Origin: a virus
Lineage: Duplodnaviria; Caudoviricetes
Virus record (IMG/VR): IMGVR_UViG_3300032087_000824
Span: 1-61,944 of that record
Reading direction: 5' to 3' (one strand)
Length of the DNA stretch: 61,944 bases
Position numbers and translations under genes: made by a program. The notes beneath the pieces were generated by a model that did not search any database, had not been told where the DNA came from, and saw only the letters and a list, made by a program, of their open reading frames with translations. Of the stretch, positions 1,438-42,560 are shown one piece after another (position 1 is the stretch's first letter; the number at the start of each line of letters is the position of its first letter).

Positions 1438-1462
1438 ATCTCACCTATGATAGCACAAGAAA

Positions 1463-1486
1463 AGGGTGGAGGTGGAGTTCCACCCT
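1463..1486 (-). terminator. Hairpin after major capsid A (terminator/attenuator), followed by an extended -10 (TGCTATCAT)
   Basis: Stem AGGGTGGA/TCCACCCT, 8-nt loop, U-run on the minus strand. Counterpart at 41433-41456. Confidence 0.7.
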
Positions 1487-1501
1487 AATCTTGTAATTAA
1501 A

Positions 1502-2629: not shown

Positions 2630-2652
2630 ATTTTATCTTCTCCTATAAATTT

Positions 2653-3132: not shown

Positions 3133-3175
3133 TATTATCTCCATTTTCTCTAGCATATATTTATCCCATAGTATT

Positions 3176-3292
3176 AATCGCTAGGTAATTAAAGGGATTT
3201 ACACAAGGGTTTATGAATAACAGATAACACACCTTGGCAATGTTACCGAATCCCAGCCCTATATTTTGTGTGCCGAACCTGGCAGGCACTAC
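3176..3292 (-). ncRNA. Candidate structured cis-regulatory RNA in scaffold/MCP leader, copy A
   Basis: Non-coding, alignable with 43088-43210 with compensatory stems. Upstream TTGACA...TGCTATACT promoter-like sequence. Confidence 0.6.
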
Positions 3293-3308
3293 ATCTAGTA
3301 TAGCAGAA

Positions 3309-4361: not shown

Positions 4362-5617
4362 TATATACCCCTTATCACATTACCACCTAAACTCCTATTC
4401 ATAGAAGAAGCAACTGTTCTTCCAAAATATTCGTTACCAGTTTCGTATGCTTTTTTTCTCATTGATTTACCTGCATCTTGAAAACCTAAACCTAATGTTT
4501 CTAAAAAATAAGTATCTGTTTCATCTGGAGAATCTCCAAATATAGAAGTATATAGTTGTTTGTATGGTCCAACCACTTGTCCATAGTTTAATCCTTTGCC
4601 AGAAAATCTTTCAAAGTATGGGTCACTATCAAACAAAGCTTGTAGCTTCATTTCAGCAGCATCTGTCTGGTCAGTAGATACTAGATAAGCTATTTCTTTT
4701 TTTGTATCTTCATCTAGTGTGTCATACTTTAGAACACCTAAATATCTTTGACCTAGTCTTTGTGCTTCTTTTGTTTTTCTAAAATCTAAAGTACCTAAGT
4801 CAAATGTTAAATTACCATCAACTTCCATTTCTATAATGTTTTTAAATGACAAGTACCTAGAATCTTCTGGTGCTAGTTCTTCTATACCTGTGTAATGTTT
4901 TACAAAGTCGTCAATATTAGCAGCATTTAAATATCCTTTTGTATATACCTCTATTAAGTTTTGATATCCATCAAAATTACTTTCACTAAAATCATCTACG
5001 TTTACACCTATCTTTGTAAGAACAGCATTTATTTCATCTGTCTTTACATCTCTAAGTTCTCTTAACCTAATGTTTGTATCGTAATCATTATTCTTTAAAC
5101 CACCAGCATTTATAAATTGTATTTGACCAACTGTCCAAGTAGATTTTAATTCTTTTAATCTTGGGTCATTCTCATCTATTGGTCTGCCCAACCACAAATG
5201 TTCTAACAATAATGACATACCTGGTGCGCCAGTTACATTACCTTCTTCATCTTTCTGTACTTCATAAAACCAAGGAGCGTAATCTTTATATAAATCTATA
5301 GTGGCTTCAAATGCTTCTGCTGGATTATATCCATCCATATCATCAAAGTTGCTAGATATGTATGTAGCACTTAAAGCTGTATGTCCTAATAAAACCCCTG
5401 GTGCTTCATATACAAACTCTGGTAGCTCTCTATCGTTGGTTAATCCGTGAGGCTTTACTGTACCTACATCATAAGATATATATACTTTTTCATCACCTTC
5501 TTCTGCTGTTAAGAAATCACCAGCATCATACAAGTAGTAATATCTTCCTGTATCTGCATCAAAGTAAATTAAATCTGGTGTAGGTTTATTAGAATATTTC
5601 CAGCTAGTTTCTGTCAT
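4361..5617 (-). CDS. Putative internal virion protein, module A
   Basis: 418 aa, acidic. C-terminus paralogous to 44423-45883 (LFDSDPxFExxSGKxLNYxQVVG, AYxTGNExF). Confidence 0.55.
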   Translation of the reverse strand: MTETSWKYSNKPTPDLIYFDADTGRYYYLYDAGDFLTAEEGDEKVYISYDVGTVKPHGLTNDRELPEFVYEAPGVLLGHTALSATYISSNFDDMDGYNPAEAFEATIDLYKDYAPWFYEVQKDEEGNVTGAPGMSLLLEHLWLGRPIDENDPRLKELKSTWTVGQIQFINAGGLKNNDYDTNIRLRELRDVKTDEINAVLTKIGVNVDDFSESNFDGYQNLIEVYTKGYLNAANIDDFVKHYTGIEELAPEDSRYLSFKNIIEMEVDGNLTFDLGTLDFRKTKEAQRLGQRYLGVLKYDTLDEDTKKEIAYLVSTDQTDAAEMKLQALFDSDPYFERFSGKGLNYGQVVGPYKQLYTSIFGDSPDETDTYFLETLGLGFQDAGKSMRKKAYETGNEYFGRTVASSMNRSLGGNVIRGI

Positions 5618-6327
5618 AGTGTGTATATCTTTTCTTTAAAATTATCTAATAACTTCATAGGTTTTCTAGGAAACCTAGTGCTTGGCACATTTGGTTCTTC
5701 TTCTTTTACAGGAGGTTCTTTGAAGTATCTACCGCTTTCTACTAATTCATCTACTGCGCTCGCATCTACTAGAGATTTGTTTCCATCTTTATCATACATA
5801 TAAGTTATTGTATCAGGTAAAGGATTCAATGTTTCCCCTTCATCTCGGTCTTTAGGACCTATAAATCCACCCATAACATTTGTCATAGCTGCTTCTTCTT
5901 TGTCTAATCTGTTCATAAACCAATCAGGAGGTGCTGTTCCCCTTTTATCTTCGTATGCTTTTTCTTGACTACTTCTAATACTTTTGATATGTCCTTCAGC
6001 TATTACATCTATAGTATCTCTTAATGCCCAAGGTCTATTAAAGTAAACCAAAGCCATATAATCAAACCTATCCTCATTTACTTTTAAATCTCTATTCTCA
6101 AGCATTTGCGATACATATTTTCTAGCTTCAGCTAAATCTTTACTTAAAATATCTATTGCTTGTTCTCTATCTATTACAGTGTCCTCATTGAATTTAAAAG
6201 TATCTGTTGCGTTTGTATGTCCAAAGCCAATAGTAAGAACACCGTTTTTGTCATAGTATGCTTTATCACTATAACCCTCAAGTTCTTCAACTACTTCTAT
6301 GATTGCTGGTGGAACTTCGTAATCCAT
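5614..6327 (-). CDS. GH24 (phage-type) lysozyme, probably virion-associated, module A
   Basis: EG-x7-D-x5-TIGFGH catalytic motif (EGYSDKAYYDKNGVLTIGFGH). Located among internal virion genes. Confidence 0.85.
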   Translation of the reverse strand: MDYEVPPAIIEVVEELEGYSDKAYYDKNGVLTIGFGHTNATDTFKFNEDTVIDREQAIDILSKDLAEARKYVSQMLENRDLKVNEDRFDYMALVYFNRPWALRDTIDVIAEGHIKSIRSSQEKAYEDKRGTAPPDWFMNRLDKEEAAMTNVMGGFIGPKDRDEGETLNPLPDTITYMYDKDGNKSLVDASAVDELVESGRYFKEPPVKEEEPNVPSTRFPRKPMKLLDNFKEKIYTL

Positions 6328-7718
6328 TATCTACTTAAACTCGCTATAGCGACACCAAGTCCTTGTTGGTACGCTTGTGCTTCTTTACCTTCATCAATAA
6401 GTGGTCTAAAATAATTATATACAAACTCATCTAGCCCTGTAGCAAATGCTGATGAAACATCATCATCTGACATTGCTGGTGGCAGTAAGTAATAATCTTG
6501 TTGTGTACCTGCAACTTGGTCTTGGTATGCCTGTGAAGCCATATCAACTCTAGCTTGTTCATAAACTCTTCTTGATTCTACATATGCAGCGCCTAATCTT
6601 TCTATTTCTCCATTAGCCCAATCTGCTATAACTTGATAATCTCTCATACTAGGATTTGCACCTATAGTTTCTCTAACTGTTTGATTAACATTAAATTTAA
6701 TAAATTCTGGATTTGCTTGTGCTATTAAAGCTGGTGCTGTAATAATAGGATTAGTATCTCTTAGTTGTACTTCTTCTATAATCTCTTCAAAATAGTTTCT
6801 CATAAATCCTAAAAATACACCTTCTTCTCCACCAGAAAGTAAATTAATTTCTCTTAAATCATTAACATCTAATCCATATTCAGGTTTAGTATTTAAATAA
6901 CTAAATGCAGATTCTAATGCTTCTACTGTTGCATCTTCTCCTGCTGTTCCTATTTCTCCAATAGTTCCTAATACATATGAGCCAGGTTGTAAGAATCCAG
7001 CTCTCATAAGTTTATCTTGTATGTTTGCTATTCTTCCTGGTTCTAATCCTGCTAAGAATGATGAAGCAATACCAAAGTTAAATACTGGTACAAGGTTTTG
7101 ATTCTTTGCGGCTTCCTTGTAATTTATTAATTGCAAATCATCTTGAAGTCCGTAATACTGCAACATACCTGATGCGTATCGTTCACCAAATGTATAACCT
7201 GGTCCTGCTGCTGTTTGGTCAGTAAAGTCTACAGTTTCTAATGCAGTAAGCAAAGCATCAGCATCACCTGTCTCTTTATATTTTTCCCAAGCTGCGTCTG
7301 CTAATCCTCTGTCTGTAACAGTAGGTTCAAACTCGTATTGTCTTTCTGTGAGATTTAATGCAGAAGCATACTCAGCATCAGCTTCTCTTTCCATATCGCT
7401 TTCATCTATATTTATAGTTATTTCACTAGGGTCTTGTCCTGTAATTCCTGATACAAATGCTGATGTAAGTGCTTTTCTTCGTTCTAAATCTTCTGATGTA
7501 GGTATAAGAACACTAACAAATTTTCTCATTGCTTTTGTGTCTGCACCTTTTTTAAGTAAAACAATTACATCTTCAACAACATTCTTAGGCATATCAGGTA
7601 ATGCTTTAAAAAACATACGTTGTAAATCTTCTAAATCAGCAATACCCTCACCAATAGCATCATAAATACTTCTTAATGTAAATCCTATTTTTTGATACTT
7701 TTGTTCTTCTCTATCCAT
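6327..7718 (-). CDS. Putative internal virion (ejection) protein, module A
   Basis: 463 aa. Paralog of 51836-53608 (YYGLxD, AGFLxPxSxVxG, TVxAxESA). Confidence 0.55.
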   Translation of the reverse strand: MDREEQKYQKIGFTLRSIYDAIGEGIADLEDLQRMFFKALPDMPKNVVEDVIVLLKKGADTKAMRKFVSVLIPTSEDLERRKALTSAFVSGITGQDPSEITINIDESDMEREADAEYASALNLTERQYEFEPTVTDRGLADAAWEKYKETGDADALLTALETVDFTDQTAAGPGYTFGERYASGMLQYYGLQDDLQLINYKEAAKNQNLVPVFNFGIASSFLAGLEPGRIANIQDKLMRAGFLQPGSYVLGTIGEIGTAGEDATVEALESAFSYLNTKPEYGLDVNDLREINLLSGGEEGVFLGFMRNYFEEIIEEVQLRDTNPIITAPALIAQANPEFIKFNVNQTVRETIGANPSMRDYQVIADWANGEIERLGAAYVESRRVYEQARVDMASQAYQDQVAGTQQDYYLLPPAMSDDDVSSAFATGLDEFVYNYFRPLIDEGKEAQAYQQGLGVAIASLSR

Positions 7719-10700
7719 TACGAGCCTCCGTATAGTGTTGTATCTACAAACTCTTCTTCAACTTCATACTTAAATAAGTCAAGATACACATAGTAAAAGT
7801 CTGGATACTCTGAGAATAATTGCTGTGCAAGTTGTCTTAGAGCTGTTCTTTGTCTTACTAATTCTTCTCTTTGTAATGATACATTACTTCCTAATACAAG
7901 TCTAGCTTCTGTTAATAACCTGTTTCTTTGTTCCATATATGCTATAGCACCTTGTACTGCAGGAAGTTGTTTTAGTTTCGTTGTTTTACCATCTGGTAAC
8001 TTTATGTTTGTTTCACCATCTTGTCTTAACATATCTTCAAATTCTCTAATCTTTGCTTCTACATTCATAGAAGTAGGTATTGTAGAACTTACACCATAAC
8101 CTGGATACTCTTGTATCAATGCATTTCTAACAGCAGTAAGCATTTCAAACTTATTCTTACTTGGAACATTAGCGTATGCAGGTGTATCAAATAACAATCT
8201 TCTTTGATATTCGTAAGCTAATCTACCTTGTGCATTTCTAATAGCTGCAACATACTCATCTTCATCTATATCTACCCTATCTCTTTCTGCAAATGCATTA
8301 GCCCAAGAAGTAAAATCAAACTCATCTAGTGGGTTATCAGGGAATATATAATATCCAATGTTAGGATATCTATCTAATACTTCTTGGTTTTCTCTAGTAA
8401 ACCTACCACCTACTTCTGTATATGAACGTTTCTGTATTTCTTTTGATTTAGAAGTTAACAATGCAGTAGGGTCTATACCAAATTGATTTACAAATTCAGT
8501 AGTAGCAGCTAACTGGTCGCCTTTATATTTAGCTAATATTCTATAATATGCGTCTGCATATATAGACATACCAAAGTAATAACCATCTGGGTCACTCTCT
8601 TGAAACTCAGCAGGGTCAAGATATAATGCACCACCAGGTGTAGTTTCTATTTCATATCTTATTACTGCACCTGTAGGAGCTGCGAATTGTACAGCAGCCC
8701 TAATCCAAGACAATCTAGTAGCAATCTCTTCTGCTTTTTTCATAGCATCTTGTTGTTTTGCTCTAGTAGAATCATCATACAAACCTGTAGTAATTAACAT
8801 TCTTAATACATCTTTGTAGGTATTAGCATAAGTTCTTTTTATTTCAGGTGTACTTGCACCAGATATAGAAAATACTTTCTTTAACCAAGAAGGTATCATT
8901 GCATCTAAATAAGTATAAGGACTTACTGGAGAGCCTTCTTCTCTACCATATGGAAAGAATATCTTATCTAGTAAAGCTGTATCTGGTAACAACTTAGCTG
9001 CAGGTATTGCAACTAATGGACCTAAACCAGGAACAGGATTACCAGCAACCATATTTAAAGAAGAAGAATATCCCTCTAGTTTTATCCTGACATCTGGTGC
9101 TTTCATAGCATCTCCAGTAATAGGATTTGTCATTAGTCTATTTTCTTCTTCTCCAAACATATAATTTGTAAGTAACTCTGTACCAGGGAAAAAGAACATT
9201 TCTTCTCCTGACATTTCATCTGTATGAAAGAAACCTTCCTCTCCTTCTTCTCCTGAACCTCTAGCACCTTGAATTACACGTTGTACTTTACGACCTGCTA
9301 ATAGTTTTTGTTGATTAATTAATCTTGACCAAGTACCTATAATCTCTTGATAAACTTCTGCGAATGGAAAAGCTAGTCTTAACATATCAGATACAACGTG
9401 TCTTTTATTTAAATCATATAGTAATCTTTTTGTTTCAGACAATGCATAGGCTTTAGCTGCGTCATCTAATTCACTAATGTTTTCTACACCAAGTATTCTT
9501 GCATCACCATCTCTGATAGGTTTTGTACCTTTAAGTATTCTTGCAGTTTCACCAGAGTTCTTTACCCACTTAGAAGCTTTCATATTAGCCATACTTATAA
9601 TTTCATTCTTCAATGCTTCGTCATAATATGCACCATTCTCTTCTATAAATCTCCAGTAATATTGTCTGAATGCTGATGACCTAGATAGTCTGTTAGTAGG
9701 AACTGCCATCAATGTTGTAAACAAATTCTCTAACACTTGGTCATACTTACTAATAGTTTGTGCATTTATATCATAAGTTGATTTCTTCATAGTATGATAA
9801 GCACCATAAATTTCTCTATCTTTATCTATTTGTCTTATGTGTCCTTTGTAAGTTCTGTGGTCATCTAGTGTTTGGTTTCTACCAAATGTAATTTCTATAG
9901 GATTGCCGTCAGGGTCAACACCTATTTTTAATCTAGTTGGTTTACCAGCAGGTATCATATCTCTAGTAGCTTGTATTCTTTTACCAAAAGCTATATGTCT
10001 TATTAATTCATCATCTCCTGGCTTTATAATATCGTGAACAATAATACTTGTAGGAGATGTTCTTGTTACAGCTTTACCAGTAGAACCATCTGACCTATGT
10101 AATACTTTAAATGTTCCATCTTCAAAAACTTCTTTTGTTTCAAAGTGTCCACCAGTTTTGTAATGTATTCTTGCAACAATACCATCAATATAAGCATCTG
10201 CAGCTTTTCTGTCTGTAAGCATTCTTATTTTTTGATATTTACCTATTTCATCTGAACCATAAGAGTAAGATGTTCTCCAATCAGATAAATCGCCATCCCA
10301 AAATCTATCTTTAATTTCTTTAATAGCATCTTCAGCAGATACAGTTTCATCAAGCACAGCTTCAGTTTGTTCTTCTTTTAACGCTTTAACTTTTCTTTGT
10401 AAGTAATTATTTATTCTTGGAGCTTTTTCTTCTAGTTGTGCTAAACCTGTACCTAAACCATCTTCAGGTAATACAACTACTTTACCAAGACCTCTTGCTT
10501 CATCTATCTTTTGAAATGCTTCATCAATAGCTTCTACAGCTACATCATAATCATCATCACTAAAAAACTTTCTAGCAGAATTTTTTGTTGGAACTCCTAT
10601 TACATTTGGCTCATCTCTAATAATTGCTTGTCCTGCTTTGCCTGTTCTAGCTAAATTATCTCCAAATACAAACATTTTGTTAGGATTGTTTTTTACAATA

Positions 10701-13700
10701 GCTGGTGTAAATCTCTTCATAGAGATTAACTCACCTCTAAATGTTCCATTAAATCCTGTAAGTTTATAAGCTATCTCAGCAGCTATAGGGTCATCACCTA
10801 ACTGTATAACTTCTCCTGCTGCACCACCATAAAAAGTATCATCTGTTTTATTAACTTCTAAAAAAGAACCTTGTCTAGAAAATGATTGATTAGGGTCAAG
10901 TACGCCTCCGTGTGATGTAGTCATTGCACCACCGTGTTCTATACCTTCTCCTATAGTATTGCCCTCTATATCGTATACGCCTTTTGCTATAAGTCTTTCT
11001 GCAAATTCATCTTCATCATAACCTCTAACTCTATAAGCTATTTTTCTTTGGTCTTTACCCATTATCCAAGCAAATGCAGATAATGGATGACTAAATACAT
11101 TGTCTAAATTATCCATCCACATACGAATTTGTTCTTCACCAACAACCCTAGAAGTCCAAGCAGCTCTTAAAAGTATTGCTGGCTTCCAAGCTTTATTCAT
11201 ATATGAATCGCCTATCATTCCTAAGTAACCTGAAGTTAACTCTCTAACTATTGCATCTTCTTCATTCTTTGTTAATTTAAATCTTTTTCTAGCATTTCTA
11301 ACCATAAGCTCTGCAGTTTCTGACACGCTTTTGTCATCTTTAATAGTAAGTTCATAAAGTCTAGATACTGGTTTAGCTAGTTCTTTTTCAAATTGAGATG
11401 CTATAACTTCATCTTCTTGTAAACCTGCAAGTCTTTGTGGTATTAATTTACCCTTACCTGCTGCTCTCATCCAAAACTCTCTTGCTGGAGAATATACTCT
11501 TAAAAATAATCTTGCATCAGGAAGTGGTATTGCGTCAGTACCTAAATACTCTGCAATAAGTTGAGCTGTAGGTCTGCCTGATATCTTTGCAATGTTTTCA
11601 ATTTGTGCTTCATTAAATAACTGTTCACTAATTCTTTCCATTGTTTCATAGTTCTGTACTTTGTTTTCAAAGAAGCTAAGTATTTGTTGTGGTGTTACCT
11701 TTGCATTCTGTATTACTTTAGAACCTTTTTCTGTTTTCTTAAATGGAGCTTTACTTTTAATAAACAATGGTTTAAGAACACTTTCTAGGACATCTCTGTC
11801 TTTAAATCCAGCAGGTCCTGCAATATTAACTGTTTTATTTCTAAGAAGCTTTTGTGCTTCTACAATAAAATCATCTGTAAGATTTGGATTTTCTAAATCA
11901 ATAAGTATCAAAGGTTTGTTAAGTGTCTTTTTAAAAACACCTGTTTCATACTTGTCTATATTTTTTGCAACTTCATCTCTCCACTCTGGTCCTACCCATC
12001 TGTTTCTAGATGCGTACAATATAGTTTTAGCAGTACCACCACCGCCTTGTGTAAGTTTGCTTTTTCTAAATGCAACTATTGTTACATCATTGTTATCTAC
12101 ATTTTGAGTAGTTCTAAATTTATAATCTCTTGGTCTAGGTTTCATAGCACCTATATCTCCACCATTTAATATATTTAATTCGTCTTGTAGTTTTATATAA
12201 TTAGCAGCATCATTGCCTTGATATAATATTTGATTGCTAATTTTTGATAATTGTTTTTTTGTATTCATTAATTTTACTTGTGCATCTGTAAGTAACTCAT
12301 CTGCATTATTTAAAAATTCTCTATATCCTCTTTCATCAAAACTTTCAAATATAATTGTTCTTTGTATTTTTATATCTCCAGTTGGTTTTGGATAAGCACC
12401 TTCTTCTATAAATTCTCTTACATTAAAATCAGGACTTAGACCAGTATCTGTTTCATTTTTACCAAATCTTTTTACTGGATATCTATAATTGGTTGTTTCA
12501 ATTTTAGTTCCGCCACCTTCTTTAGGAAGTTTTACTTTACGTTGATAAACAGCATCATATTGAATTGTTTTATTTTTTACAAACCTAAGTATTGCTGATT
12601 TAAATTGTAAGTCATCAACAATTTCTCTAACACTTCTGTCATCACCTTTTGTAACATCTTTACCTTTAACTGTAGTTTGTTTTATTCTTTTGCCTTGTTG
12701 GTCTACACCTTGATAATTCTTACCTTCTAACTCTACATTAATTCTAAATAATTCTTGTTCAGCAAGTTCAGCATTTCTTAAAGCCTGTTGCAACTGTTCG
12801 TCTGTATATTTTTCAGGAAGAATACCTTTATCTACCTTCTTTAATTTTTCTGCTTCAACTTTTTTTGTTAATGTGTTTATTTCGTTTTCTAAAACAATTT
12901 GTCTTTTAAGCAGTGAAGCATCGCCACCACCTTCAGTAACTTGTTTTATATATTCTTCTAAAGCTTTTACTGCATCTTCTCTTTTAGAAAAATTAATTAA
13001 TCCACCTTTACCTTTTATTTCTAATGCAATCCTGTCAGCTATTTCTGTTTCAGTTAAATCTCCAAATTTACCTTTATTAAGTATTTGATAATATCTTGCT
13101 TTTTCACTTGCAGTTAATCTTTCTTCTTTAAATGTATCTTTAAATTTAAGACCTTTAGTGTTTTGTGTTATTTTTTGTTCTAACCTAGCCAGGCTATTTT
13201 CAGTGCTTTTAATAGCGTCATCTACTGAATCTTGTACATTGTATTTTAATAACTGACCTGCACTGCTGTCATATCTACCATCTTTAATTGTACGTTGTGT
13301 AAGACCAGGCATACCGACACCACCAGTTTCAATACCTATATCATCTGCTATTTGTAAACCTAAAAAGTCAACACCCTCTTGACCACCACTACTTACTTTC
13401 TTTACAAGCACTTCCATTTCTGGGTCTAGCCTGTCTATAGTAGCTTCTGGTAATATTTCTTCTAGAAAATCATCTTTAAGAAAATTCATAGAAGGAACAT
13501 TTAAATCAGCAATAATATTATCTGGACCAGCTAATTCATAATCTATACGAACTGCTTCACCGTTTTTAAAATAATTTTTATTTTGAATTTGAGATTTGTA
13601 CCATTCGTATGTATATCCTTCTTTCCTAGCAATTTCTCTAGCCCTATCTTCTAATTTAGGATTTGTAAATAAATCTTTTGGGAGTGTTTCAACATTATTT

Positions 13701-15814
13701 ACACGAACTAAAACTTTTCTATTTGTATTTTGGTCAAGCATTTGCCTAATTTGACCTACTTCAGGTGCGCCATTATATCCTGCTAATGACCTAGTTGTAG
13801 ATGTTCTTTTACCCTGCATAATAAGTTCCATAGTGTTTGTGTCTTTATTTGAAAAAGGTGTATTTGTTTTTTTAACAGTAAAGTTCATTGGTATAGGTTT
13901 ACCTTCACCAACTATGTTTTCTATTTGTCCAAGTTCTGACTTAGCATCTCTAATTAATCTTCTTCTGCCACCTACTTCTACTTTTTTAACTCCAGCTCTT
14001 TCAGCAACTCTTTCTACAATCTCTAAAGCTTTTTCTAGTTCAAACTGTTGAGATAGTATTGCATTACCTTTACTATCTACAATATCTAGTTTTTGTCCTT
14101 GCCAAAACTCCTCTGACATATTTGTTCTAAAGTATTTTCTAGTTTCATCAATAGAACCCATAAACTTTTTAATACCTTTAGATAATTCTGGAGGTAAATC
14201 TAACGCATCAAACTTCTGTGCTATATGTGTAAATACTCCATCATCACCACCTATGACATCAAGTACTAAAGATAACTTAGCTAAGTTTGCAGGTCTAGGG
14301 TCATATGGTGTTTGTGCATCAAATGGTATATCTGCTAATGCAGTAATAGCAGGGTCTTCCATACCATCTGCAATTCTATCTAAAGCTTTTATAGCAATTT
14401 CATCATCTACTTTTGCAAATTTCATCCACGCTTTTAATTCAAAAAATGTTGTATTTAAATCATTAGCGTGCAATCTTGGTGCAGGAAACTCTTGAAACAA
14501 TCTACCCCATTTAGAATCTTGATTGTTTAATTTCATAGCAGTTCTAAATCCACCTGCTCCATAATCTGAACCATAGTATGCTTTGCCTGCTGCTCTAGAA
14601 AACTTACCTTTAAATATTAAAGAGTTAGAATCTAGACGTTTGTTAAATGCTAAATTGTCTTGTGTGGTTTCTATAAGTATTTTTTGTACTTCTGATGCAT
14701 TATCTGCATCTCTAAGTTGTCTGCCGATAATAGCACCATTATCTAAATTTTTAAGTTGACCTTTAGTTAATATATCTATTTCATCATATGTACTAGCTCT
14801 TACAAATAAATCTGCAATATCTCTACCTGTTTGTGATGTATAAAATTCTTTTGCGGTAGGCTGATGAACTGTTGCTCTAACAGCTTTATTTATAAGACCT
14901 GGTTTATTATTAGGTGTAAATGTTCTTACTGCTTTACCTGCTCTAGATATACCTAAACCTAAATAAGTTGAAGGGTCTGTAAATATAGTATAAGCACCAT
15001 CAATAACACCTGACATAAATTTAAATGCTTTACTTCCTGGTTCAAATATTTCTACAGCAGCTACACGACCAGGAGATAATTTAACAGTACCTTTTCTACC
15101 TTGATAGCTTAATGCTGCTTTTTCTCTATCTTGTATTGTAGGTTGTGATATAGGTGTTCCTAACTGTTCTTGTATAGATTCTCTTACAATGTTTGGGTCT
15201 GCACCTCTACCTACTAATTCTTTATAAACTTCTGTATCTTCAGCTAATGTAGAGTTTCCAAAGTAACCTTCACCTAAATTAACTTTGTTACCTTTTTTTA
15301 TTTCTCTAAAAGCTCTACCTGCTAGTGTAGGTCCTGTTTCTTCAAATGTATTTTTTAATTCTGTATGAAAGTCAGGATTAATTGCTGCTAATGCTGTACC
15401 TATACCAGAAAAAAACAATAATGGGTTTTGTTGTTTTTTAGAGTAATATCTCATACCTGCAGTACCAAATCTTTTTACAAACTGGCTAGCAGATTCCATA
15501 CCTACAAAAGCACCTCTAATTGCACCCCTACCAGATGCTTTTATACTTTCCCACCAACTTCTTTCTTTTTCCATATATGAATTTACGATAGATGTAAACT
15601 CAGGACTATCTTTAGTAAGACCAACCATAGCACTTGCAACTTGTACATCTGTAGGTAAGAACCCATATTCTTGAGATATACCTATTAAGTTTTGTGCTAT
15701 ATCGTTTTGAGAAAAATAATTTCTAAGTTCTTGTGCTTGGTTTTTTCTTTGTTTTACAAACTCTGAATCAAGAGCGTCTTGATACGGAGATGGAAAACTC
15801 CACTCCCACGCCAT
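7718..15814 (-). CDS. Giant polyvalent internal virion/ejection protein, module A (ASCH, split cpYpsA/SLOG, Macro-like/DUF7831-like domains)
   Basis: 2698 aa. ASCH GKRTSTTR..EG; SLOG SGGQEGVD...RTTQNVDNNDVT...VNIAGP; FVFGDNL..GQAIIR..PNVIGVPTK domain. Paralog of 53608-60459. Confidence 0.7.
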   Translation of the reverse strand: MAWEWSFPSPYQDALDSEFVKQRKNQAQELRNYFSQNDIAQNLIGISQEYGFLPTDVQVASAMVGLTKDSPEFTSIVNSYMEKERSWWESIKASGRGAIRGAFVGMESASQFVKRFGTAGMRYYSKKQQNPLLFFSGIGTALAAINPDFHTELKNTFEETGPTLAGRAFREIKKGNKVNLGEGYFGNSTLAEDTEVYKELVGRGADPNIVRESIQEQLGTPISQPTIQDREKAALSYQGRKGTVKLSPGRVAAVEIFEPGSKAFKFMSGVIDGAYTIFTDPSTYLGLGISRAGKAVRTFTPNNKPGLINKAVRATVHQPTAKEFYTSQTGRDIADLFVRASTYDEIDILTKGQLKNLDNGAIIGRQLRDADNASEVQKILIETTQDNLAFNKRLDSNSLIFKGKFSRAAGKAYYGSDYGAGGFRTAMKLNNQDSKWGRLFQEFPAPRLHANDLNTTFFELKAWMKFAKVDDEIAIKALDRIADGMEDPAITALADIPFDAQTPYDPRPANLAKLSLVLDVIGGDDGVFTHIAQKFDALDLPPELSKGIKKFMGSIDETRKYFRTNMSEEFWQGQKLDIVDSKGNAILSQQFELEKALEIVERVAERAGVKKVEVGGRRRLIRDAKSELGQIENIVGEGKPIPMNFTVKKTNTPFSNKDTNTMELIMQGKRTSTTRSLAGYNGAPEVGQIRQMLDQNTNRKVLVRVNNVETLPKDLFTNPKLEDRAREIARKEGYTYEWYKSQIQNKNYFKNGEAVRIDYELAGPDNIIADLNVPSMNFLKDDFLEEILPEATIDRLDPEMEVLVKKVSSGGQEGVDFLGLQIADDIGIETGGVGMPGLTQRTIKDGRYDSSAGQLLKYNVQDSVDDAIKSTENSLARLEQKITQNTKGLKFKDTFKEERLTASEKARYYQILNKGKFGDLTETEIADRIALEIKGKGGLINFSKREDAVKALEEYIKQVTEGGGDASLLKRQIVLENEINTLTKKVEAEKLKKVDKGILPEKYTDEQLQQALRNAELAEQELFRINVELEGKNYQGVDQQGKRIKQTTVKGKDVTKGDDRSVREIVDDLQFKSAILRFVKNKTIQYDAVYQRKVKLPKEGGGTKIETTNYRYPVKRFGKNETDTGLSPDFNVREFIEEGAYPKPTGDIKIQRTIIFESFDERGYREFLNNADELLTDAQVKLMNTKKQLSKISNQILYQGNDAANYIKLQDELNILNGGDIGAMKPRPRDYKFRTTQNVDNNDVTIVAFRKSKLTQGGGGTAKTILYASRNRWVGPEWRDEVAKNIDKYETGVFKKTLNKPLILIDLENPNLTDDFIVEAQKLLRNKTVNIAGPAGFKDRDVLESVLKPLFIKSKAPFKKTEKGSKVIQNAKVTPQQILSFFENKVQNYETMERISEQLFNEAQIENIAKISGRPTAQLIAEYLGTDAIPLPDARLFLRVYSPAREFWMRAAGKGKLIPQRLAGLQEDEVIASQFEKELAKPVSRLYELTIKDDKSVSETAELMVRNARKRFKLTKNEEDAIVRELTSGYLGMIGDSYMNKAWKPAILLRAAWTSRVVGEEQIRMWMDNLDNVFSHPLSAFAWIMGKDQRKIAYRVRGYDEDEFAERLIAKGVYDIEGNTIGEGIEHGGAMTTSHGGVLDPNQSFSRQGSFLEVNKTDDTFYGGAAGEVIQLGDDPIAAEIAYKLTGFNGTFRGELISMKRFTPAIVKNNPNKMFVFGDNLARTGKAGQAIIRDEPNVIGVPTKNSARKFFSDDDYDVAVEAIDEAFQKIDEARGLGKVVVLPEDGLGTGLAQLEEKAPRINNYLQRKVKALKEEQTEAVLDETVSAEDAIKEIKDRFWDGDLSDWRTSYSYGSDEIGKYQKIRMLTDRKAADAYIDGIVARIHYKTGGHFETKEVFEDGTFKVLHRSDGSTGKAVTRTSPTSIIVHDIIKPGDDELIRHIAFGKRIQATRDMIPAGKPTRLKIGVDPDGNPIEITFGRNQTLDDHRTYKGHIRQIDKDREIYGAYHTMKKSTYDINAQTISKYDQVLENLFTTLMAVPTNRLSRSSAFRQYYWRFIEENGAYYDEALKNEIISMANMKASKWVKNSGETARILKGTKPIRDGDARILGVENISELDDAAKAYALSETKRLLYDLNKRHVVSDMLRLAFPFAEVYQEIIGTWSRLINQQKLLAGRKVQRVIQGARGSGEEGEEGFFHTDEMSGEEMFFFPGTELLTNYMFGEEENRLMTNPITGDAMKAPDVRIKLEGYSSSLNMVAGNPVPGLGPLVAIPAAKLLPDTALLDKIFFPYGREEGSPVSPYTYLDAMIPSWLKKVFSISGASTPEIKRTYANTYKDVLRMLITTGLYDDSTRAKQQDAMKKAEEIATRLSWIRAAVQFAAPTGAVIRYEIETTPGGALYLDPAEFQESDPDGYYFGMSIYADAYYRILAKYKGDQLAATTEFVNQFGIDPTALLTSKSKEIQKRSYTEVGGRFTRENQEVLDRYPNIGYYIFPDNPLDEFDFTSWANAFAERDRVDIDEDEYVAAIRNAQGRLAYEYQRRLLFDTPAYANVPSKNKFEMLTAVRNALIQEYPGYGVSSTIPTSMNVEAKIREFEDMLRQDGETNIKLPDGKTTKLKQLPAVQGAIAYMEQRNRLLTEARLVLGSNVSLQREELVRQRTALRQLAQQLFSEYPDFYYVYLDLFKYEVEEEFVDTTLYGGS

Positions 15815-23268: not shown

Positions 23269-23280
23269 GCAATATAAAAT

Positions 23281-23302
23281 TGCGCGCGCGCAAGCGCGCG
23301 CA
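23281..23302. repeat. Alternating CG palindrome/hairpin
   Basis: TGCGCGCGC-GCAA-GCGCGCGCA, perfect 9-bp stem. Confidence 0.7.
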
Positions 23303-23330
23303 GTTCGCTTTGCGAACAAGAAAGGAAACT

Positions 23331-23576
23331 ATGATAATAGAATTCTATGTATATGAAACAAGTAAGTATTCCTTATATCCAATATTTAAGGAAACAACAT
23401 ACACACTTCAAGGTACATTAAAAGAAATCAATGATAAAGTAAACGCACTAAGAAATGAAAATGTTTACTTTGAGCCAAAAACTCTACAATGGAAAGGTAT
23501 TACTGCAAATGTAAATGATGACCTAGCAGAATTAATATCCATTATAGAAAATATGCCAGACTTCAGTAAAGTCTAA
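23331..23576 (+). CDS. Early hypothetical protein
   Basis: Start moved to MIIEFYV, preceded by SD GAACAAGAAAGGA. Confidence 0.65.
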   Translation: MIIEFYVYETSKYSLYPIFKETTYTLQGTLKEINDKVNALRNENVYFEPKTLQWKGITANVNDDLAELISIIENMPDFSKV

Positions 23577-23579
23577 ACG

Positions 23580-23960
23580 AAGTAGTTGGGTAGGTGTCCC
23601 CCTTACATCTACCTTACTACATAAAAAAATTTGTCGCCCCACCCCGCGACACCCCACCCCACCACCAATTACCCAACCCATCACGAGAATAAAGAACGAT
23701 GGTCTGATACCCCAAGAGCTGTCTTGCAATCTCAACAAATACTAATAACAAATCTCAAACACTAATAACTAAAAACTAATATAAAAATACTATGTATATA
23801 TATACGAAAAAAAAAATTTATAATCTACTATGTATAAATTTATGCATCAAAGAATTACGAAAATGTCAAGTCATTCTGTAATAACAAACAAAATTGCAAA
23901 AAATTTTGGTGGCGCAAAAATAAATTTGCGACAAAAATTCTATATGTTGTGTATGCATTT
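23580..23960. other. Non-coding C-rich tract plus A/T-rich short repeats (possible origin or genome-end region)
   Basis: Four C4 runs at 23637-23670, then ACTAATA/ACTATGTATA repeats and an A10 run. Confidence 0.35.
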
Positions 23961-23989
23961 TTATGTATATTGTAGAAAGGACAAAAGTT

Positions 23990-24514
23990 ATGGGTAAAAG
24001 ACATAGAAATCCAAGTGTTCCTAGAACAAAGCGAACACTCGTTGGTTACGACAAGCTCAATGATGTGCCTGTTGTAATTGACACAAGAGTACCAGACTTA
24101 AATGGTAGTAGAGAGCCACAACTTCCAGTAGAAGACGGTGATAAGTACAAGTGGACTTGTCGCTTATGTGAAGCTACTACGAAGGTAGGACAAAAGCTCT
24201 GCTCTTTATGTAGCAGAGATGCAGATAAAGTCATTGATACTGTTGACAATACAGAAGCTATTGAACAGCATATCAAGAACTGCGATTGTTGTATCTGTGA
24301 ACTAGATGAACTAGATGATTGCGAGTGCCTTTGCAACTACGCAGTTAATCCTGACAAACCTAATGTTATTGATGGTCAATGGAAACCTAATTCAAGATAC
24401 GATTACATTATCGTAGACAAACCAGTTGTTCAATGCATTGAGTGTTTCATTGTACTACCTGTTAAGTTTGCTAAAAATGGTTTGCGTAAATGCGAACATT
24501 GCAGAAAAGTTTAA
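23990..24514 (+). CDS. Cys-rich (multi Zn-finger) early protein
   Basis: Several CxxC pairs. Likely start MGKRHR after SD AGAAAGGAC. Confidence 0.65.
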   Translation: MGKRHRNPSVPRTKRTLVGYDKLNDVPVVIDTRVPDLNGSREPQLPVEDGDKYKWTCRLCEATTKVGQKLCSLCSRDADKVIDTVDNTEAIEQHIKNCDCCICELDELDDCECLCNYAVNPDKPNVIDGQWKPNSRYDYIIVDKPVVQCIECFIVLPVKFAKNGLRKCEHCRKV

Positions 24515-24526
24515 TATAAATAAGCG

Positions 24527-25062
24527 AAGCTATCTACACAAGTAAGACATTTTCCTTCCCTGTTTAATGTACCGAAAGTGTAGGTAGCTTGTAGCACATA
24601 GGAACGCATAAGGTAGGAAACTCTAGCTTAGAACTAGAGGTAAGAACAACCATATAAACAATGTAATTCCTGTTTGGTTCGCTAACTGTGTGTTACAAGC
24701 TATCTATAAGATAGAACTACAAGTACTTCCTGCTTAGGCTATAGCTAAGTAGATAGGTATGCCGAGTACAAAGTATCTCAGACTTGTAGATAGCGTGGTG
24801 TGTATAATTTGCAATTTAACATTGCAGTCCTTTCTTGTTCAGCTGTACACACCACGCTATCTATATAGCACATAACACATTAATGAGTTAGGTACAAGAC
24901 TACAATCGTGCAAAACATATTTAAAGATATGTACTTTTGGCTATAACAAAAGTTACCTAAGCTAGATTGTAGGTTAGTGTGTTATAAGCTATTTATATAG
25001 CACATAGACTTAGGCAACTCGTTCTAAAAATCATAATTCCTAGAGTTGCCTAGCTATGTAAT
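24527..25062 (+). ncRNA. Array of six interlocked long hairpins (candidate polycistronic sRNA precursor)
   Basis: Consecutive inverted repeats joined by GCTATCTA/TAGCACATA motifs. Mismatches are G-U on the plus strand. Confidence 0.6.
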
Positions 25063-25078
25063 AAAAGAAAGAGAGTAT

Positions 25079-25219
25079 ATGTTATGTGATATGTGCCGTG
25101 AAGGTAAATATTCAAAGCTAATGATAGAAGCTAATGTCAAATCCTCTGTGTATCACAGAGTTATTTGTTATTTATGTGGATATCAAACTGTTAAAAGACT
25201 AAATGTAAAGAGAATATAA
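25079..25219 (+). CDS. Small Zn-ribbon protein (46 aa)
   Basis: MLCDMCREG...ICYLCGY; below the ORF-track cutoff. Confidence 0.55.
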   Translation: MLCDMCREGKYSKLMIEANVKSSVYHRVICYLCGYQTVKRLNVKRI

Positions 25220-25237
25220 AGGAGAGAAATAGAAATT

Positions 25238-25777
25238 ATGGATATACATAATGACGAAACTAAGAGAGAAGAGTATATTAAGCAAATTAGAGAAGAATAC
25301 AATATGGAACATATTGCAAACTTCTATCCGTTAGCTGTAGAAACAATCTTTGGTATTAACTCAATCGTAGTTGATAATGAGAAAGAAACCATAAACCAGA
25401 AACGCGCTTTTGTACCAGCACAAACCCCTGTTATAGCAATGGCTATGTATTGGGAAAGTATGTGGCAACAGATGTTAGCACAAACTGTAACAAGTATGGG
25501 GCAAATGATTATGGAAGTAATCAAAACCAGTGAACTTGAAGAAGTACCTGTGGGTATGATTGAAGGTTTGCTTGATGCTTTCACTAGCGAACAAGGTGTA
25601 AAAGCTGCTTTAGAAGCGTTCTATGAAAGTATACCAGACATACTAAGTATTGGTAATCCTATGTTGATAGGTAATGTAATTGCTAAAACAGCAGAAGAAG
25701 TAGGTATGCCTGATGCAGTAGAAGATTTACTTGCAGATATATTCAAAAATGTAGAACTTAAAACTGAGGAGGAATAG
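25238..25777 (+). CDS. Hypothetical protein
   Basis: 179 aa, SD AAAGGAG. Confidence 0.7.
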   Translation: MDIHNDETKREEYIKQIREEYNMEHIANFYPLAVETIFGINSIVVDNEKETINQKRAFVPAQTPVIAMAMYWESMWQQMLAQTVTSMGQMIMEVIKTSELEEVPVGMIEGLLDAFTSEQGVKAALEAFYESIPDILSIGNPMLIGNVIAKTAEEVGMPDAVEDLLADIFKNVELKTEEE

Positions 25778-25980
25778 TGAATAAAGAACTTGTTAATAAA
25801 ATTTGGCAAGACGCAAGAACAAGCGTGTTACAGTGTCCTAAATGTAATGAAGATATTTGTTACGAGTGGGAACAACACACAATTAATGATTACGATTGCG
25901 AGGAATGTGCATTATTTCAACCTAACGACATAGTAGAATACGGAACTTGTTTCAGATGTTCTCTAGATGAGGAAGAATAA
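25777..25980 (+). CDS. Small Cys-rich protein
   Basis: Three CxxC pairs, coupled start. Confidence 0.6.
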   Translation: MNKELVNKIWQDARTSVLQCPKCNEDICYEWEQHTINDYDCEECALFQPNDIVEYGTCFRCSLDEEE

Positions 25981-26105
25981 TGGAAAAAATAAAACTTTGG
26001 TGGATATTTAATATTTATCAACCATTTTTAGATACATTTTGTTATGGATTAAAAATAAGAACATTTATTAGGTGGAAGTTTAAAGGAATAATTTGAGGAG
26101 AAATA

Positions 26106-27771: not shown

Positions 27772-28464
27772 ATGGCAGAGAGTAATTGTTGGAAATTGTT
27801 TGATGCAATTATTGGTGCAACACCAAGAATATTGCTGTATGGTGTACCTGGTACAGGGAAAACATATCAAGCAAACACAACTAATTTAGAAGGTAGAAAT
27901 ACTTACAATGTTACCTTAACACAAGACAGTAGTGCTAGTGAATTGCTAGGACATTATGTTCTAAATGAAACTGGTGGTATGGATTGGTTAGATGGTATTG
28001 GTGTACAAGCTTGGAAAGATGGTGCAAGACTTGTGGTTAATGAGATTGACCACGCAGGTGTAGATGTTATGTCATTTCTACACGCCCTTCTTGACGACCC
28101 TGAGTTTGCAAAGTTCACACTACCAAACAAGAGAAAAGAAACTGTAAGACCACAACCTAGCTTTCAAGTGATAGCTACTATGAATGGTGTTCCAGAGGAT
28201 TTACCTGAAGCATTAATTGACAGGTTTCCTGTAAAGATAAACATTGATACTGTACACCCAAGTGCATTGGAGAGTTTACCTGAGAAGTTCCGTAGTGTAT
28301 ACGCTGACTACAACCAAGGTGCTTTCTCTATTCGTAGATGGATTGCACTAGGCGAACTGCTTGACAAAGAAGTCAACTTAGAGTACGCAGTACAAACTAT
28401 ATTCCCTAATGAGTATGAAGAAATTACTGATGCTTTGGTAGTTGCTTTGAATAGTGATGAGTAA
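27772..28464 (+). CDS. MoxR/CobS-like AAA+ ATPase
   Basis: Walker A GVPGTGKT, Walker B VVNEID, ATMN, ALIDRF. Confidence 0.85.
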   Translation: MAESNCWKLFDAIIGATPRILLYGVPGTGKTYQANTTNLEGRNTYNVTLTQDSSASELLGHYVLNETGGMDWLDGIGVQAWKDGARLVVNEIDHAGVDVMSFLHALLDDPEFAKFTLPNKRKETVRPQPSFQVIATMNGVPEDLPEALIDRFPVKINIDTVHPSALESLPEKFRSVYADYNQGAFSIRRWIALGELLDKEVNLEYAVQTIFPNEYEEITDALVVALNSDE

Positions 28465-30257
28465 TGTTATTTGTTAAAAGAGAACAGAAAGCTAGTGCAA
28501 AAGATTATCCTAATCTTGCACTTGGTACAGATAACAAGTTTATTCGTAGAGTACCAACACCTGCTGCTGTAAGAAAAACAGTTAAGAAAAATGCTGTTCC
28601 AGTTGTAGAAACACAGGAAAGATATTCATCTAGAGAAAAACTTATTGCTCTTGCGCAATCAAAGTTGTTCTCTGATAAGAAGTATATGAAATTGAGTGAG
28701 TTTGATTACTCAACCAATGTACCTGTTGCAGAGAGAATAGTATCTAACTATGAAGCTGATACTTGGGTTAGGAAAGCTATGAGTAATAAAACTACTAGGT
28801 CAATTACAAATAGTGATAAGTATTACAACAGTATGAATACATTACCATATCCAACATTTGGACAAGCTAAAAAGCATATACAAGAGTTTGTGAGTATATT
28901 TTATAGAAAGAATACTAACGATAAAGATATATACAAATTCTTTATGCAGACACTAGCTAACTATGGTACTACATATGCTTCAAGCTATTGGACTTATTCT
29001 TTGTCAATATCTGATGAACTTTTAGAATATGTAGTAGGTAAAGAAGATAACTTTGAATTTGTAGAAGCTAAGTTATTTGCTATGAAGCCAAATGATATTC
29101 ATCAACTTAAACAAGAAGAATGGCAAGTTCTTTTATACAAAGCTGTGATGTTAGAGATGCCTGAGGCAACTCGTAATCAAGTATTTGAGGACACTAAATT
29201 CATTTTGTTAAAATTAAATTCGTTAGCTCAAATAAAAAATCGTGCTTCCAGAGTTCTTAATAGAAAGAGGAATAGAAAAATTTCTCCTAAGAATATCAAA
29301 GATGTTATTGCAAGTATGTCTTATAACAAATACTTTGAACACGTTCAATTTATGTTAGACAGACATCAAAAGATGTACAAAGAAGTGTATCAAGGTACAC
29401 CTACTACTAATAACTTAGTAGAAGCAATAGATGATATGAGTGAATTTAAGGTAGATTACTATGGAAATGTTAAACCTAAAGATGAAGGAAATGATATATT
29501 AGATGACACACCATCAAATGTATTACCTGATTGGCTAACAAAGGACTTGTCTGAGAATATATTAGATGAAGCAAATAAAAATTATAATAGTAATTTTAAA
29601 GTTGAAGGTTATGGTAGAGGTGTACACGGTAGAGGATTACTTCACAAGTTTGTTCCTAACAGAAGGGATAAGGTTGTTGAGGAAAAACTACATAGGCAAC
29701 TAAGTGATGCTGGTGTTAAGCCAAGAAATATACACAGAATACTTACTGATAGGAAAGTATTTGCTCGTAGGAAAAAAATAGCAGGTGGCTCTGTAATGAT
29801 AGATTGTAGTGGCTCAATGGCTTGGTCAATAGAACAACTAAGAGAGATTTGCAGAATACTACCAGCTTCTAAGATTGCTGGATATACTGGATATTCCGCG
29901 AGTGATAAGCGAGATGGTGTTATGTATCAAGGTGATATTCGTATTATTGCAGACAAAGGCAAATATGATGACAACTCACTTATTGAACTTTATAAGCACG
30001 GAAACAACAATGTTGATTTAGATGCTATTAAATGGCTTGCACAACAAGAAGAGCCTAGAATATGGGTTACTGACTTGCAAGTTGTTGGTGTTTCTACTGA
30101 TAGCTACAAGTATATAGGAAAACATTGTCCAGAAACCTTAAACAATGAAGGCAGGGTTGAGATATCGCGCTTTATGAAAAAGCACAATATCATACCTATT
30201 GAAAAGTTTGAGTATGTTAAAGAGTTTGCAACTCAATACGCTAACTTTATAGGTTAA
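28464..30257 (+). CDS. VWA-domain (CobT-like) partner protein
   Basis: MIDAS motif IDCSGSM and later VTD; adjacent to the MoxR ATPase. Confidence 0.75.
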   Translation: MLFVKREQKASAKDYPNLALGTDNKFIRRVPTPAAVRKTVKKNAVPVVETQERYSSREKLIALAQSKLFSDKKYMKLSEFDYSTNVPVAERIVSNYEADTWVRKAMSNKTTRSITNSDKYYNSMNTLPYPTFGQAKKHIQEFVSIFYRKNTNDKDIYKFFMQTLANYGTTYASSYWTYSLSISDELLEYVVGKEDNFEFVEAKLFAMKPNDIHQLKQEEWQVLLYKAVMLEMPEATRNQVFEDTKFILLKLNSLAQIKNRASRVLNRKRNRKISPKNIKDVIASMSYNKYFEHVQFMLDRHQKMYKEVYQGTPTTNNLVEAIDDMSEFKVDYYGNVKPKDEGNDILDDTPSNVLPDWLTKDLSENILDEANKNYNSNFKVEGYGRGVHGRGLLHKFVPNRRDKVVEEKLHRQLSDAGVKPRNIHRILTDRKVFARRKKIAGGSVMIDCSGSMAWSIEQLREICRILPASKIAGYTGYSASDKRDGVMYQGDIRIIADKGKYDDNSLIELYKHGNNNVDLDAIKWLAQQEEPRIWVTDLQVVGVSTDSYKYIGKHCPETLNNEGRVEISRFMKKHNIIPIEKFEYVKEFATQYANFIG

Positions 30258-41471: not shown

Positions 41472-42560
41472 TTATGCAGGTGTTACACCTGTAATTTTAC
41501 AATGGTTCTGTGGAGGACCGAAGTCAAATCCCATTTCCATATAAATTGCTTTTGCAACTCGTGCATAGTCATCTTGGTCTATGTCACGAACAAATACAGT
41601 TCCCTTACCAGGAATGTTTGTAAACACAGGGCTTACGAAGGCAAGGTCCACGATATAACACTTGTTATCAGGTAATATATCAGGGTCCAATACCATAAGA
41701 CCAATGTTTCCAAATGGTGTGATAACTGTATCAATATCAACACCACCAACATTTCTATCTCTAGGTAAGATAGCAGGTGTAATAACACCTGAAACGGTAG
41801 GGTTTATTAATTCTTTGTTTAAAGAAAGTAATTGTGCTGGGTTAATCAAAAGCACTGGTTGCTTCATTGCAGACTTAGCGTCATACATAGCTTTCAATGC
41901 TCCTGCGATTGTGTCCCAATGTAGTACTTGGTCTACACCACCTGATTGGTTATCGTAAGATACGCCACCTGTTAATCCTAGGTGAGCATCTAAACCTCTC
42001 ATACCTCTGTCTCCAGTACCAGCAAAGTCTGCACCAGTACCATCATTATAGACACCGTTAATTGCAAACCATTCTACCTCTTTGGCTAGTTTGTCAAGTG
42101 CTAGTTCCATTTGCTCTGCAAACTCATCTTGAATTGGGGAACCACCAAATAGTGCTAGTTTATCACCAGCAGTGTTTCCTGCATTTCCGTCTGAGATATT
42201 GAAAGCGTTGTTACTAACATCAAATACATTTTGGTTGCCAGTAGATGCCAAAGCTGTGTATGACATCTTTACACCTTTTTGGAAGATTTGTGTTACAGCA
42301 GTATATGATACTCTGTCCCTTCCAAGATACTCTGTAGGTTGTCCACCTTCAGTTCCAACAGTTGGAGCTGAAGTAATGGATGCTGTATCAGCAGTTTGGA
42401 ATTGCCAAAAAGTGGAGTTTAAAACTTTTCCACCTCCTGTCATTCCGCCTACAGCAGCAGTAAAAGGAGTTCTCTGACCACCAACTCTAAACAATTCACC
42501 AGCAAAGTTATTAATTTGCTTAGCGTAAATTGTATTATTGGTTAGCGATATTTCCGCCAT
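41472..42560 (-). CDS. Major capsid protein, module B
   Basis: 362 aa; paralog of 1502-2629 (AGDKLALFGGSP, GTVFVRDIDQD, KAIYMEMGF). Confidence 0.85.
   Translation of the reverse strand: MAEISLTNNTIYAKQINNFAGELFRVGGQRTPFTAAVGGMTGGGKVLNSTFWQFQTADTASITSAPTVGTEGGQPTEYLGRDRVSYTAVTQIFQKGVKMSYTALASTGNQNVFDVSNNAFNISDGNAGNTAGDKLALFGGSPIQDEFAEQMELALDKLAKEVEWFAINGVYNDGTGADFAGTGDRGMRGLDAHLGLTGGVSYDNQSGGVDQVLHWDTIAGALKAMYDAKSAMKQPVLLINPAQLLSLNKELINPTVSGVITPAILPRDRNVGGVDIDTVITPFGNIGLMVLDPDILPDNKCYIVDLAFVSPVFTNIPGKGTVFVRDIDQDDYARVAKAIYMEMGFDFGPPQNHCKITGVTPA

Follow-up and report, generated by a model that had tools for sequence, protein, structure and literature searches.

The virus record analysed here, 61,944 bp in length and referred to in its entirety as the window, carries a chain of six abutting hairpins in a noncoding gap between two genes of the same strand. 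Pairing in arrays of this kind is selected on one strand, the sense strand, their cassettes turn over at the stem arms, and the arm sequence outlasts protein divergence. On balance, we read the array as a set of co-transcribed, recombination-shuffled, clamp-embedded small structured RNAs that are probably released by host RNase III.

The window is complete (100% by CheckV) and encodes a terminase, SU10-type capsid genes and an AAA ATPase, with the majority of its ORFs having no family match. The array is housed in a noncoding plus-strand gap of about 570 nt (24515-25078), within which the hairpins span 24527-25062. Upstream lies a plus-strand gene (23963..24514) for a Cys-rich protein of 183 aa without a family match, whose relatives share 57-95% identity and whose stop codon is 12 nt 5' of the first hairpin. 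Downstream, also on the plus strand, lies a gene of 46 aa (25079..25219), likewise without a family match, with a CxxC...CxxC pattern that appears zinc-ribbon-like when judged from the translation. The last hairpin ends 16 nt short of the start codon of this gene. A scan of the plus strand from 24515 to 25083 found neither promoter-like nor terminator-like sites, and a sigma-70 promoter reading of the junction was dropped when that scan gave no match. A fixed partnership between the array and the zinc-ribbon-like gene was also discarded, as only 30 of 208 loci showed a homologue close by, each time co-oriented with the array. Within the window, complementarity exists between an array arm, the b arm (AUAGCACAUAACACAU), and the sequence around the start codon of the zinc-ribbon-like gene (24865-24880 versus 25077-25092, 16 nt at 88%), and a second complementarity to the same start region covers 24868-24880 versus 25084-25096 (13 nt at 92%). 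This complementarity could reflect cis regulation or chance, the latter because the codons there encode CDMC. Further upstream, a G+C-rich palindrome, TGCGCGCGCTTGCGCGCGCGCA, stands at 23281-23302 in a genome otherwise of 34% G+C; it has a terminator-like score on both strands and sits at the start of an ORF (23280-23576).

Six abutting hairpins had been claimed for 24527-25062 in an earlier note made from the letters of the window, and all six were recovered at their coordinates, each on the plus strand. H1 (24527..24590), a unit of the type that we call alpha, has a 13-bp closing stem, AAGCUAUCUACAC / GUGUAGGUAGCUU, with 12 Watson-Crick pairs and one G-U pair. Its interior, hereafter the H1 motif, consists of AGUAAG, a 5-bp inner stem with CCCUGUU in the loop, and then CCGAAAG. 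H2 (24581..24706), a beta unit, encloses an 84-nt structured cargo in a 21-bp clamp, UAGGUAGCUUGUAGCACAUAG / CUGUGUGUUACAAGCUAUCUA; its stem can be drawn with 17 bp and extended to 21 bp (18 Watson-Crick, 3 G-U). H3 (24699..24794), again an alpha unit, has a 12-bp stem, GCUAUCUAUAAG / CUUGUAGAUAGC, with one G-U pair and a 72-nt cargo that has homologues in 7 loci. H4 (24787..24863) is beta-like, with a variant 20-bp clamp, UAGAUAGCGUGGUGUGUAUA / UGUACACACCACGCUAUCUA, that includes one G-U pair. A small hairpin and, after it, CAGUCCUUUCUU make up its cargo, and a compensatory change in the inner hairpin can be read directly from the versions at two related loci (L005 and L012). H5 (24856..25001), also beta-like, has core arms at 24866-24883 / 24974-24991 and a 90-nt cargo; its stem can be drawn as 18 bp with 2 mismatches or, if lengthened, as 28 bp with 4. 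H6 (24998..25062), the last hairpin, has a perfect 10-bp core (25011-25020 / 25043-25052) and an outer pairing of ACAUAG with CUAUGU, and has homologues in L005 and in L012/L076. The mismatches of H1 to H4 proved to be G-U on the plus strand, as the note had said, with no other mismatch type in these four stems.

Neighbouring hairpins do share the 8-mers GCTATCTA / TAGRTAGC, and the threefold recurrence of TAGCACATA is real, with all window copies falling inside the array region. The count of three taken alone is not unusual, being reached in 15 of 100 shuffles. For the 19-mer junction GCTATCTATATAGCACATA, two occurrences were found when up to 3 mismatches were allowed, versus 0.06 expected. 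The pseudoknot that had been proposed in H5 was found to have two perfect and crossing helices, 24888-24894 / 24954-24960 (7 bp) and 24900-24907 / 24965-24972 (8 bp). When the interior was dinucleotide-shuffled 5000 times, such a crossing arose in only 34 cases, which makes the predicted pseudoknot arms unlikely to be a product of chance. No homologue of the H5 cargo was found among the related loci examined.

Folding of the region was compared with that of shuffled controls. The plus-strand array region reached -174 kcal/mol versus -126.5 +/- 5.7 in the shuffles (z -8.38), and none of 100 shuffles folded as well, while the minus strand of the same region gave a z of -4.49. Folded singly, H1 to H6 yielded z values of -4.8, -6.2, -2.7, -7.7, -5.0 and -6.0, respectively, H3 being the weakest fold of the six.

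Comparison with related arrays reveals a simple grammar. An alpha unit reads GCUAUCUA, cargo, UAGRUAGC; a beta unit reads UAGGUAGC plus about 13 nt, cargo, and about 13 nt plus GCUAUCUA. The two clamp types alternate, the units abut without linkers and the 8-mers are common to neighbours, so each 8-mer can pair leftward or rightward, which is the interlocking described in the earlier note. In the window the ambiguity is confined to the shared 8-mers; two complete registers are possible only for a unit bounded by long arms of identical sequence. Across 225 interiors the beta helix has a fixed length of 21-22 bp (8 plus 13-14 bp), with the paired fraction beyond the 8-mer being 0.93-1.00 for 12 positions, 0.83 at position 13 and 0.62 at position 14 before it falls to background. 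The alpha stem, evaluated in 183 interiors, is the 8-mer plus about one pair, or about 9 bp. Cargos measure about 30-110 nt and whole units 60-130 nt, and up to ten arms occur within one gap.

The inference of selection on RNA that the note had drawn from the G-U mismatches was evaluated in a sample anchored on the H1 motif, in which beta units were taken for standing next to H1 and were not picked on beta arms. This sample was used for the pairing test because loci fished with the arms are biased. All 25 distinct beta clamps of the sample, representing 19 different arm sequences, formed at least 11 of 13 pairs, while non-cognate pairings of beta arms averaged 8.7 of 13. The same clamps contain 46 G-U pairs and 0 A-C pairs. 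These results uphold selection on a single sense strand in a sample that was not selected on beta arms. Since G-T pairs stabilise hairpins of single-stranded DNA too, a DNA form of the sense strand would, strictly speaking, also fit the strand asymmetry. Neighbouring genes use the sense strand as their coding strand: among nearest ORFs of 60 aa or more, 74 of 83 upstream and 63 of 82 downstream have the orientation of the array, and none of 84 arrays lies inside an ORF. Occurrences of the H1 motif number 116 in sense and 0 in antisense. Sense folding is better than antisense folding in 140 of 141 arrays, an energy gap that is partly built in because many of these arrays were fished with arms carrying three G-U pairs.

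The arms were detected in at least about 180 uncultured marine phage contigs, as counted by hand over three scans of IMG/VR contigs. Scans with 20-mer and 18-mer arm motifs matched at least 123 stretches each, and the third, anchored on the H1 motif, matched 48 stretches. Sequencing runs that contain the window come from seawater and marine sediment metagenomes. Among 50,697 GenBank phage records nothing similar was found by nucleotide searches with 851-nt and 30-nt queries in distant mode and a 10-kb query in near mode, and the 20-mer of the beta arm was not found in 185,579 prokaryote species represented by one genome each. The H1 pattern gave 18 matches in the prokaryote genome collection, of which 16 are chance matches without arms or outer stem. 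The two true matches (L339 and L346) are identical copies located 43.9 kb apart on one contig of an Actinomycetota MAG (PBPX01000045.1, 58,316 bp, GC 0.34), with 8 arm motifs nearby. This contig looks like a phage genome that was redundantly assembled and binned into the MAG. Its placement is a weak hint of an actinomycetotal host, and this hint fits the nearest cultured relatives of the terminase, which are actinophages at 25% identity.

In five nearly complete motif-bearing genomes of 40-44 kb, whose terminases are only 50-53% identical to the window's, the array keeps its place, 2-4 kb into the operon running divergently from the terminase gene; overall the site is syntenic, 2-7 kb into the terminase-divergent operon, with one or two sites per genome. 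In a sample anchored on the terminase only (17 loci with at least 7 kb upstream), units with strict arms were present in 13 of 17 loci at 3-6.7 kb, and 2 further loci carry the H1 motif in other outer stems. The flanking ORFs are diverse, forming about 40 clusters on each side, and exact 18- to 20-mer arms persist where the terminase is only 50-53% identical to that of the window. A search for related phages having the junction motif with swapped cargo, which the earlier note had recommended, was successful. Relatives found via the two flanking proteins carry other numbers and kinds of units in the same gap, and unit sets differ even between relatives whose flanking protein is 94-95% identical. 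At L005, where the upstream protein is 94% identical, H1, H4 and H6 are kept, the H2 cargo is swapped, and H3 and H5 are missing. In metagenome contigs, likewise, different letters stand in place of the H2 cargo, with the exchange confined precisely to the stretch between the arms.

The inserts are folded modules and not filler, because the inner stem of H1 covaries and the H2 family has compensatory changes across three clamps. BLAST sorted the 288 distinct cargos into at least 161 clusters, a count that results from loose clustering of an input that includes near-duplicates of the same contigs, and the same family can be seen in alpha and beta frames. The commonest family is that of the window's H1, in which AGUA.G, CCCUGU and GAA are invariant over 55 sequences. 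Pairing in the inner stem of these sequences runs at 80-96%, versus 36-41% after register shifts, and each position shows 4-6 types of pair; the outer stem is 95-98% paired and covarying. The AGUA and GAA strands may resemble a sarcin-ricin-type internal loop. Members of the H2 cargo family sit in the beta clamp, in the alpha clamp and in a third, purine-rich clamp, with compensatory changes in 14 of 27 predicted pairs.

H1 occurs once per array or is absent; its presence in 37 of 84 complete arrays at any position, and its absence from the other 47, removed it as a candidate universal leader. A hammerhead or other known ribozyme was likewise rejected for H1 in view of the absent Rfam match and a core that misfits by eye. 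A kissing partner for the H1 loop was sought among the other cargos and none was indicated, ACAGGG occurring there 0 times versus 1.3 expected. In six loci (L025, L037, L048, L058, L071 and L074) a U-run comes after an H1-type hairpin that has a different outer stem, and some H1 copies may terminate transcription because of these U-runs. The claim of an anti-SD loop in H1 holds in part only, since the loop element conserved across 55 relatives is CCCUGU and not CCUCC. Over the cargos as a whole, pyrimidine-rich anti-SD-like motifs are indeed enriched: 31 of 161 families have them, while ten shuffles gave 2-7 and the reverse complement gave 11; the enriched motifs that are unpaired in the cargos are CCUUUC, CCCUU and similar. 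Hairpins resembling tRNA T-arms were counted 13 times in sense cargos and 0 times in antisense.

The earlier note had also described the array as CRISPR-like in logic, and this part was not supported. A conserved repeat does alternate with variable inserts, and the content varies among relatives, as it does in CRISPR arrays. However, the arms here are inverted and not direct, and spacing in the window is irregular (41-125 nt). The cargos are not spacer-like; they are folded, covarying families that are shared between phages and recur in different clamps. No CRISPR repeat match was found within the array, and no Cas families were found among 40 window ORFs scanned with Pfam (28 + 12).

Clusters of phage tRNA genes and Y RNAs offer another comparison. 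Y RNA and YrlA combine a conserved stem with a tRNA-like module. The resemblance lies in the clustering of small stable RNA genes, in the T-arm-like hairpins of some cargos and in a mini tmRNA-like gene that relatives carry beside the array. The differences are that ARAGORN predicted 0 genes, that TROVE/Ro60 (PF05731) was found in 0 of 5 phage genomes, a Ro60 supplied by the host being still conceivable, and that no Rfam Y RNA matched. The ARAGORN result for tRNA and tmRNA genes covers the window, 6 genomes and 259 loci. Searches with Rfam 15 gave no match to the array interior in window 23500-26000 at E<=10, a single sub-threshold match, outside the array, in the whole window at E<=0.1, and, for twenty related loci at E<=1, a sole tmRNA-like match beside an array. 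The mini tmRNA-like gene stands just past the array at L054 (79-158, minus strand), and similar 3' ends occur in L040, L116, L286 and L311. Its features are an acceptor stem bearing G3-U, a T-arm and the ending ...CCACCUCCAC; an mRNA-like part is missing. It scores 52.4 bits against Rfam tmRNA (gathering score 47) and may imitate the tRNA-like domain of that RNA.

A mechanism can be proposed for the reading that we favor. The hairpin chain would be transcribed with early genes as part of a polycistronic transcript, in which the clamps would let each cargo fold on its own. The one RNA run examined yielded contigs over coding parts of a relative and none over the array, a result that weighs on neither side. 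Host RNase III could then cut the two-turn clamps of 21-22 bp and free small RNAs capped by a stem. We infer this cleavage from helix length only: the clamps have the two-helical-turn stem of RNase III hairpins, at 21-22 bp in general and at 21 bp for H2 and 20 bp for H4 in the window. The enzyme would have to be that of the host because none of five genomes tested, the window's included, encodes an RNase III. The freed cargos may act in trans on host or phage factors, with one subset of cargos predicted to expose pyrimidine-rich, anti-SD-like loops and another resembling tRNA T-arms. The conserved arms could double as homology for recombination, which would explain the whole-cassette differences between close relatives.

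A more specific version of this proposal is that the phages, a clade of abundant marine viruses, devote one locus to an exchangeable library of more than 150 different small aptamer-like, decoy or SD-targeting RNAs, with the universal clamp serving as folding insulator, RNase III signal and recombination site; we put this forward only tentatively. If it is true, co-infecting phages could trade single RNA cassettes, the library would amount to an RNA-based arsenal for host takeover or counter-defence with a role comparable to that of protein anti-defence islands, and its tRNA-like and mini-tmRNA-like members would mimic host RNAs.

Among the other explanations, the one that survives best is that the array acts only in cis, as intercistronic RNase III or stability hairpins, as a control of translation or as terminators, with cargos that have no function in trans. 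Intercistronic RNase III hairpins are present in T7 early mRNA, and RNase III processing stems bracket 16S and 23S rRNA. Those stems resemble the present ones in being long and double-stranded within a polycistronic transcript, and the rRNA stem encloses a functional RNA that is excised. They differ in that they are single, are not chained through 8-mers and lack hypervariable cargos, and cleavage here is only predicted. Action in cis agrees with an array that sits between co-transcribed genes with no spacer, with the U-runs after H1-type hairpins in six loci, with the occurrence of H1 directly 5' of the zinc-ribbon-like gene in L010, L372 and L409, and with the window's complementarity between the b arm and the start region of this gene. 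It leaves unexplained the 161 or more cargo families, the covariation inside the cargos, the appearance of one cargo in three clamps beside unrelated genes, and the presence of up to ten arms per gap. We regard it as unlikely, if still worth weighing.

Less probable again is a mobile or recombination element acting at the level of DNA, similar to MITEs and REPINs, to attC sites or to PeSLs, for which RNA folding would be incidental. Such an element would be expected to show conserved inverted arms around variable interiors, whole cassettes gained, lost or replaced exactly at the arms, and arms far more conserved than proteins, all of which are seen here. The 46 G-U versus 0 A-C pairs and the covariation of the arms are, however, unexpected for terminal repeats of duplex DNA. 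In addition, orientation relative to genes is fixed, the cargos covary, and the one or two sites per genome are syntenic and undispersed. Tyrosine integrase (PF00589) was found in 0 of 5 genomes, with controls positive in 14 of 14. Recombination at the arms is, moreover, already contained in the explanation by clamp-embedded RNAs as a side effect. Imperfect inverted repeats, a variable centre and hairpin folding are shared with attC sites, REPINs and MITEs; the array differs from them in lacking an integrase match, in occupying one syntenic locus, in having the coding strand as its sense strand and in its covarying interiors. The core-site consensus of attC is GTTRRRY, and the arms GTTACAAGC and GTTATAAGC misfit it. 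PeSLs of T4-type phages, in the accessible descriptions, are stem-loops combining a terminator and an early promoter that flank protein-coding ORFs, and they resemble the present arms as conserved intergenic motifs in variable early regions with proposed modular shuffling (PMC2839356, PMC4122927). The cassettes here are, by comparison with those descriptions, noncoding, with no ORF of at least 60 aa, and the window array is without a promoter-like site.

It is very improbable that the array acts as the template of a reverse transcriptase that makes short cDNA hairpins, in the manner of UG27 or of retron msr/msd. Variable hairpin ncRNA units that are gained and lost have been described in phage arrays: as presented in the accessible part of the preprint, UG27 RT phage arrays consist of tandem hairpin ncRNA units of one fold and about 135-167 nt, located beside an RT and two accessory genes, and relatives differ by whole units (bioRxiv 10.64898/2026.09.22.753630). 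With that description the present arrays share the tandem organization of hairpin ncRNAs in phages, the diversity of sequences and the whole-unit differences among relatives. They differ from it in having no RT, in their unlike folds and in having the closing stem as the conserved part. A search for the reverse transcriptase family RVT_1 (PF00078) at E<=1 gave no match in the window or in five related genomes, with controls positive in 4 of 14 genomes, and the units are 60-130 nt with unlike folds instead of about 150 nt with a common fold. As that text defines UG27, the present arrays do not belong to it, since UG27 depends on an RT and its units all share a fold. A replication origin or single-strand initiation site, with DNA hairpins near a switch of gene strand and GC skew, is equally hard to credit: cumulative GC skew does turn at about 22-24 kb and DNA hairpins tolerate G-T pairs, but the skew here tracks gene orientation, hundreds of different covarying interiors would be needless for an origin, and U-run terminators end some units.

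A description of this architecture was not found in the full-text literature searched, where the UG27 arrays came closest; the other systems compared each share one trait with the array and differ in others. If the RNAs work, one uncultured marine phage clade would hold well over a hundred unknown structured RNA families and a new class of phage gene, with modular evolution by the swapping of RNA cassettes rather than ORFs, and the clamp would offer RNA engineers a natural scaffold with which a single transcript could yield many folded RNAs. As an exact sequence tag, the conserved arms in any case allow loci of this kind to be collected, cargos included, from any metagenome.

Two further features of the window were recorded. 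An AAA_5 (MoxR/CobS-like) ATPase gene is followed by that of a 597-aa protein (27772-30257), and the ATPase is kept in 6 of 6 genomes compared; the 597-aa neighbour was considered as a possible Ro60-like protein and set aside, having no Pfam or PDB match. The record also holds two paralogous structural blocks (424-15814 and 40064-60459), which arose either through genuine tandem duplication or through the assembly of two related phages into a chimera. The SU10-type capsid gene pair of these blocks (1502-2629 and 41472-42560) is 62% identical, two giant ORFs of 2698 and 2283 aa are 34-43% identical, and relatives of about 41 kb have a single structural block.
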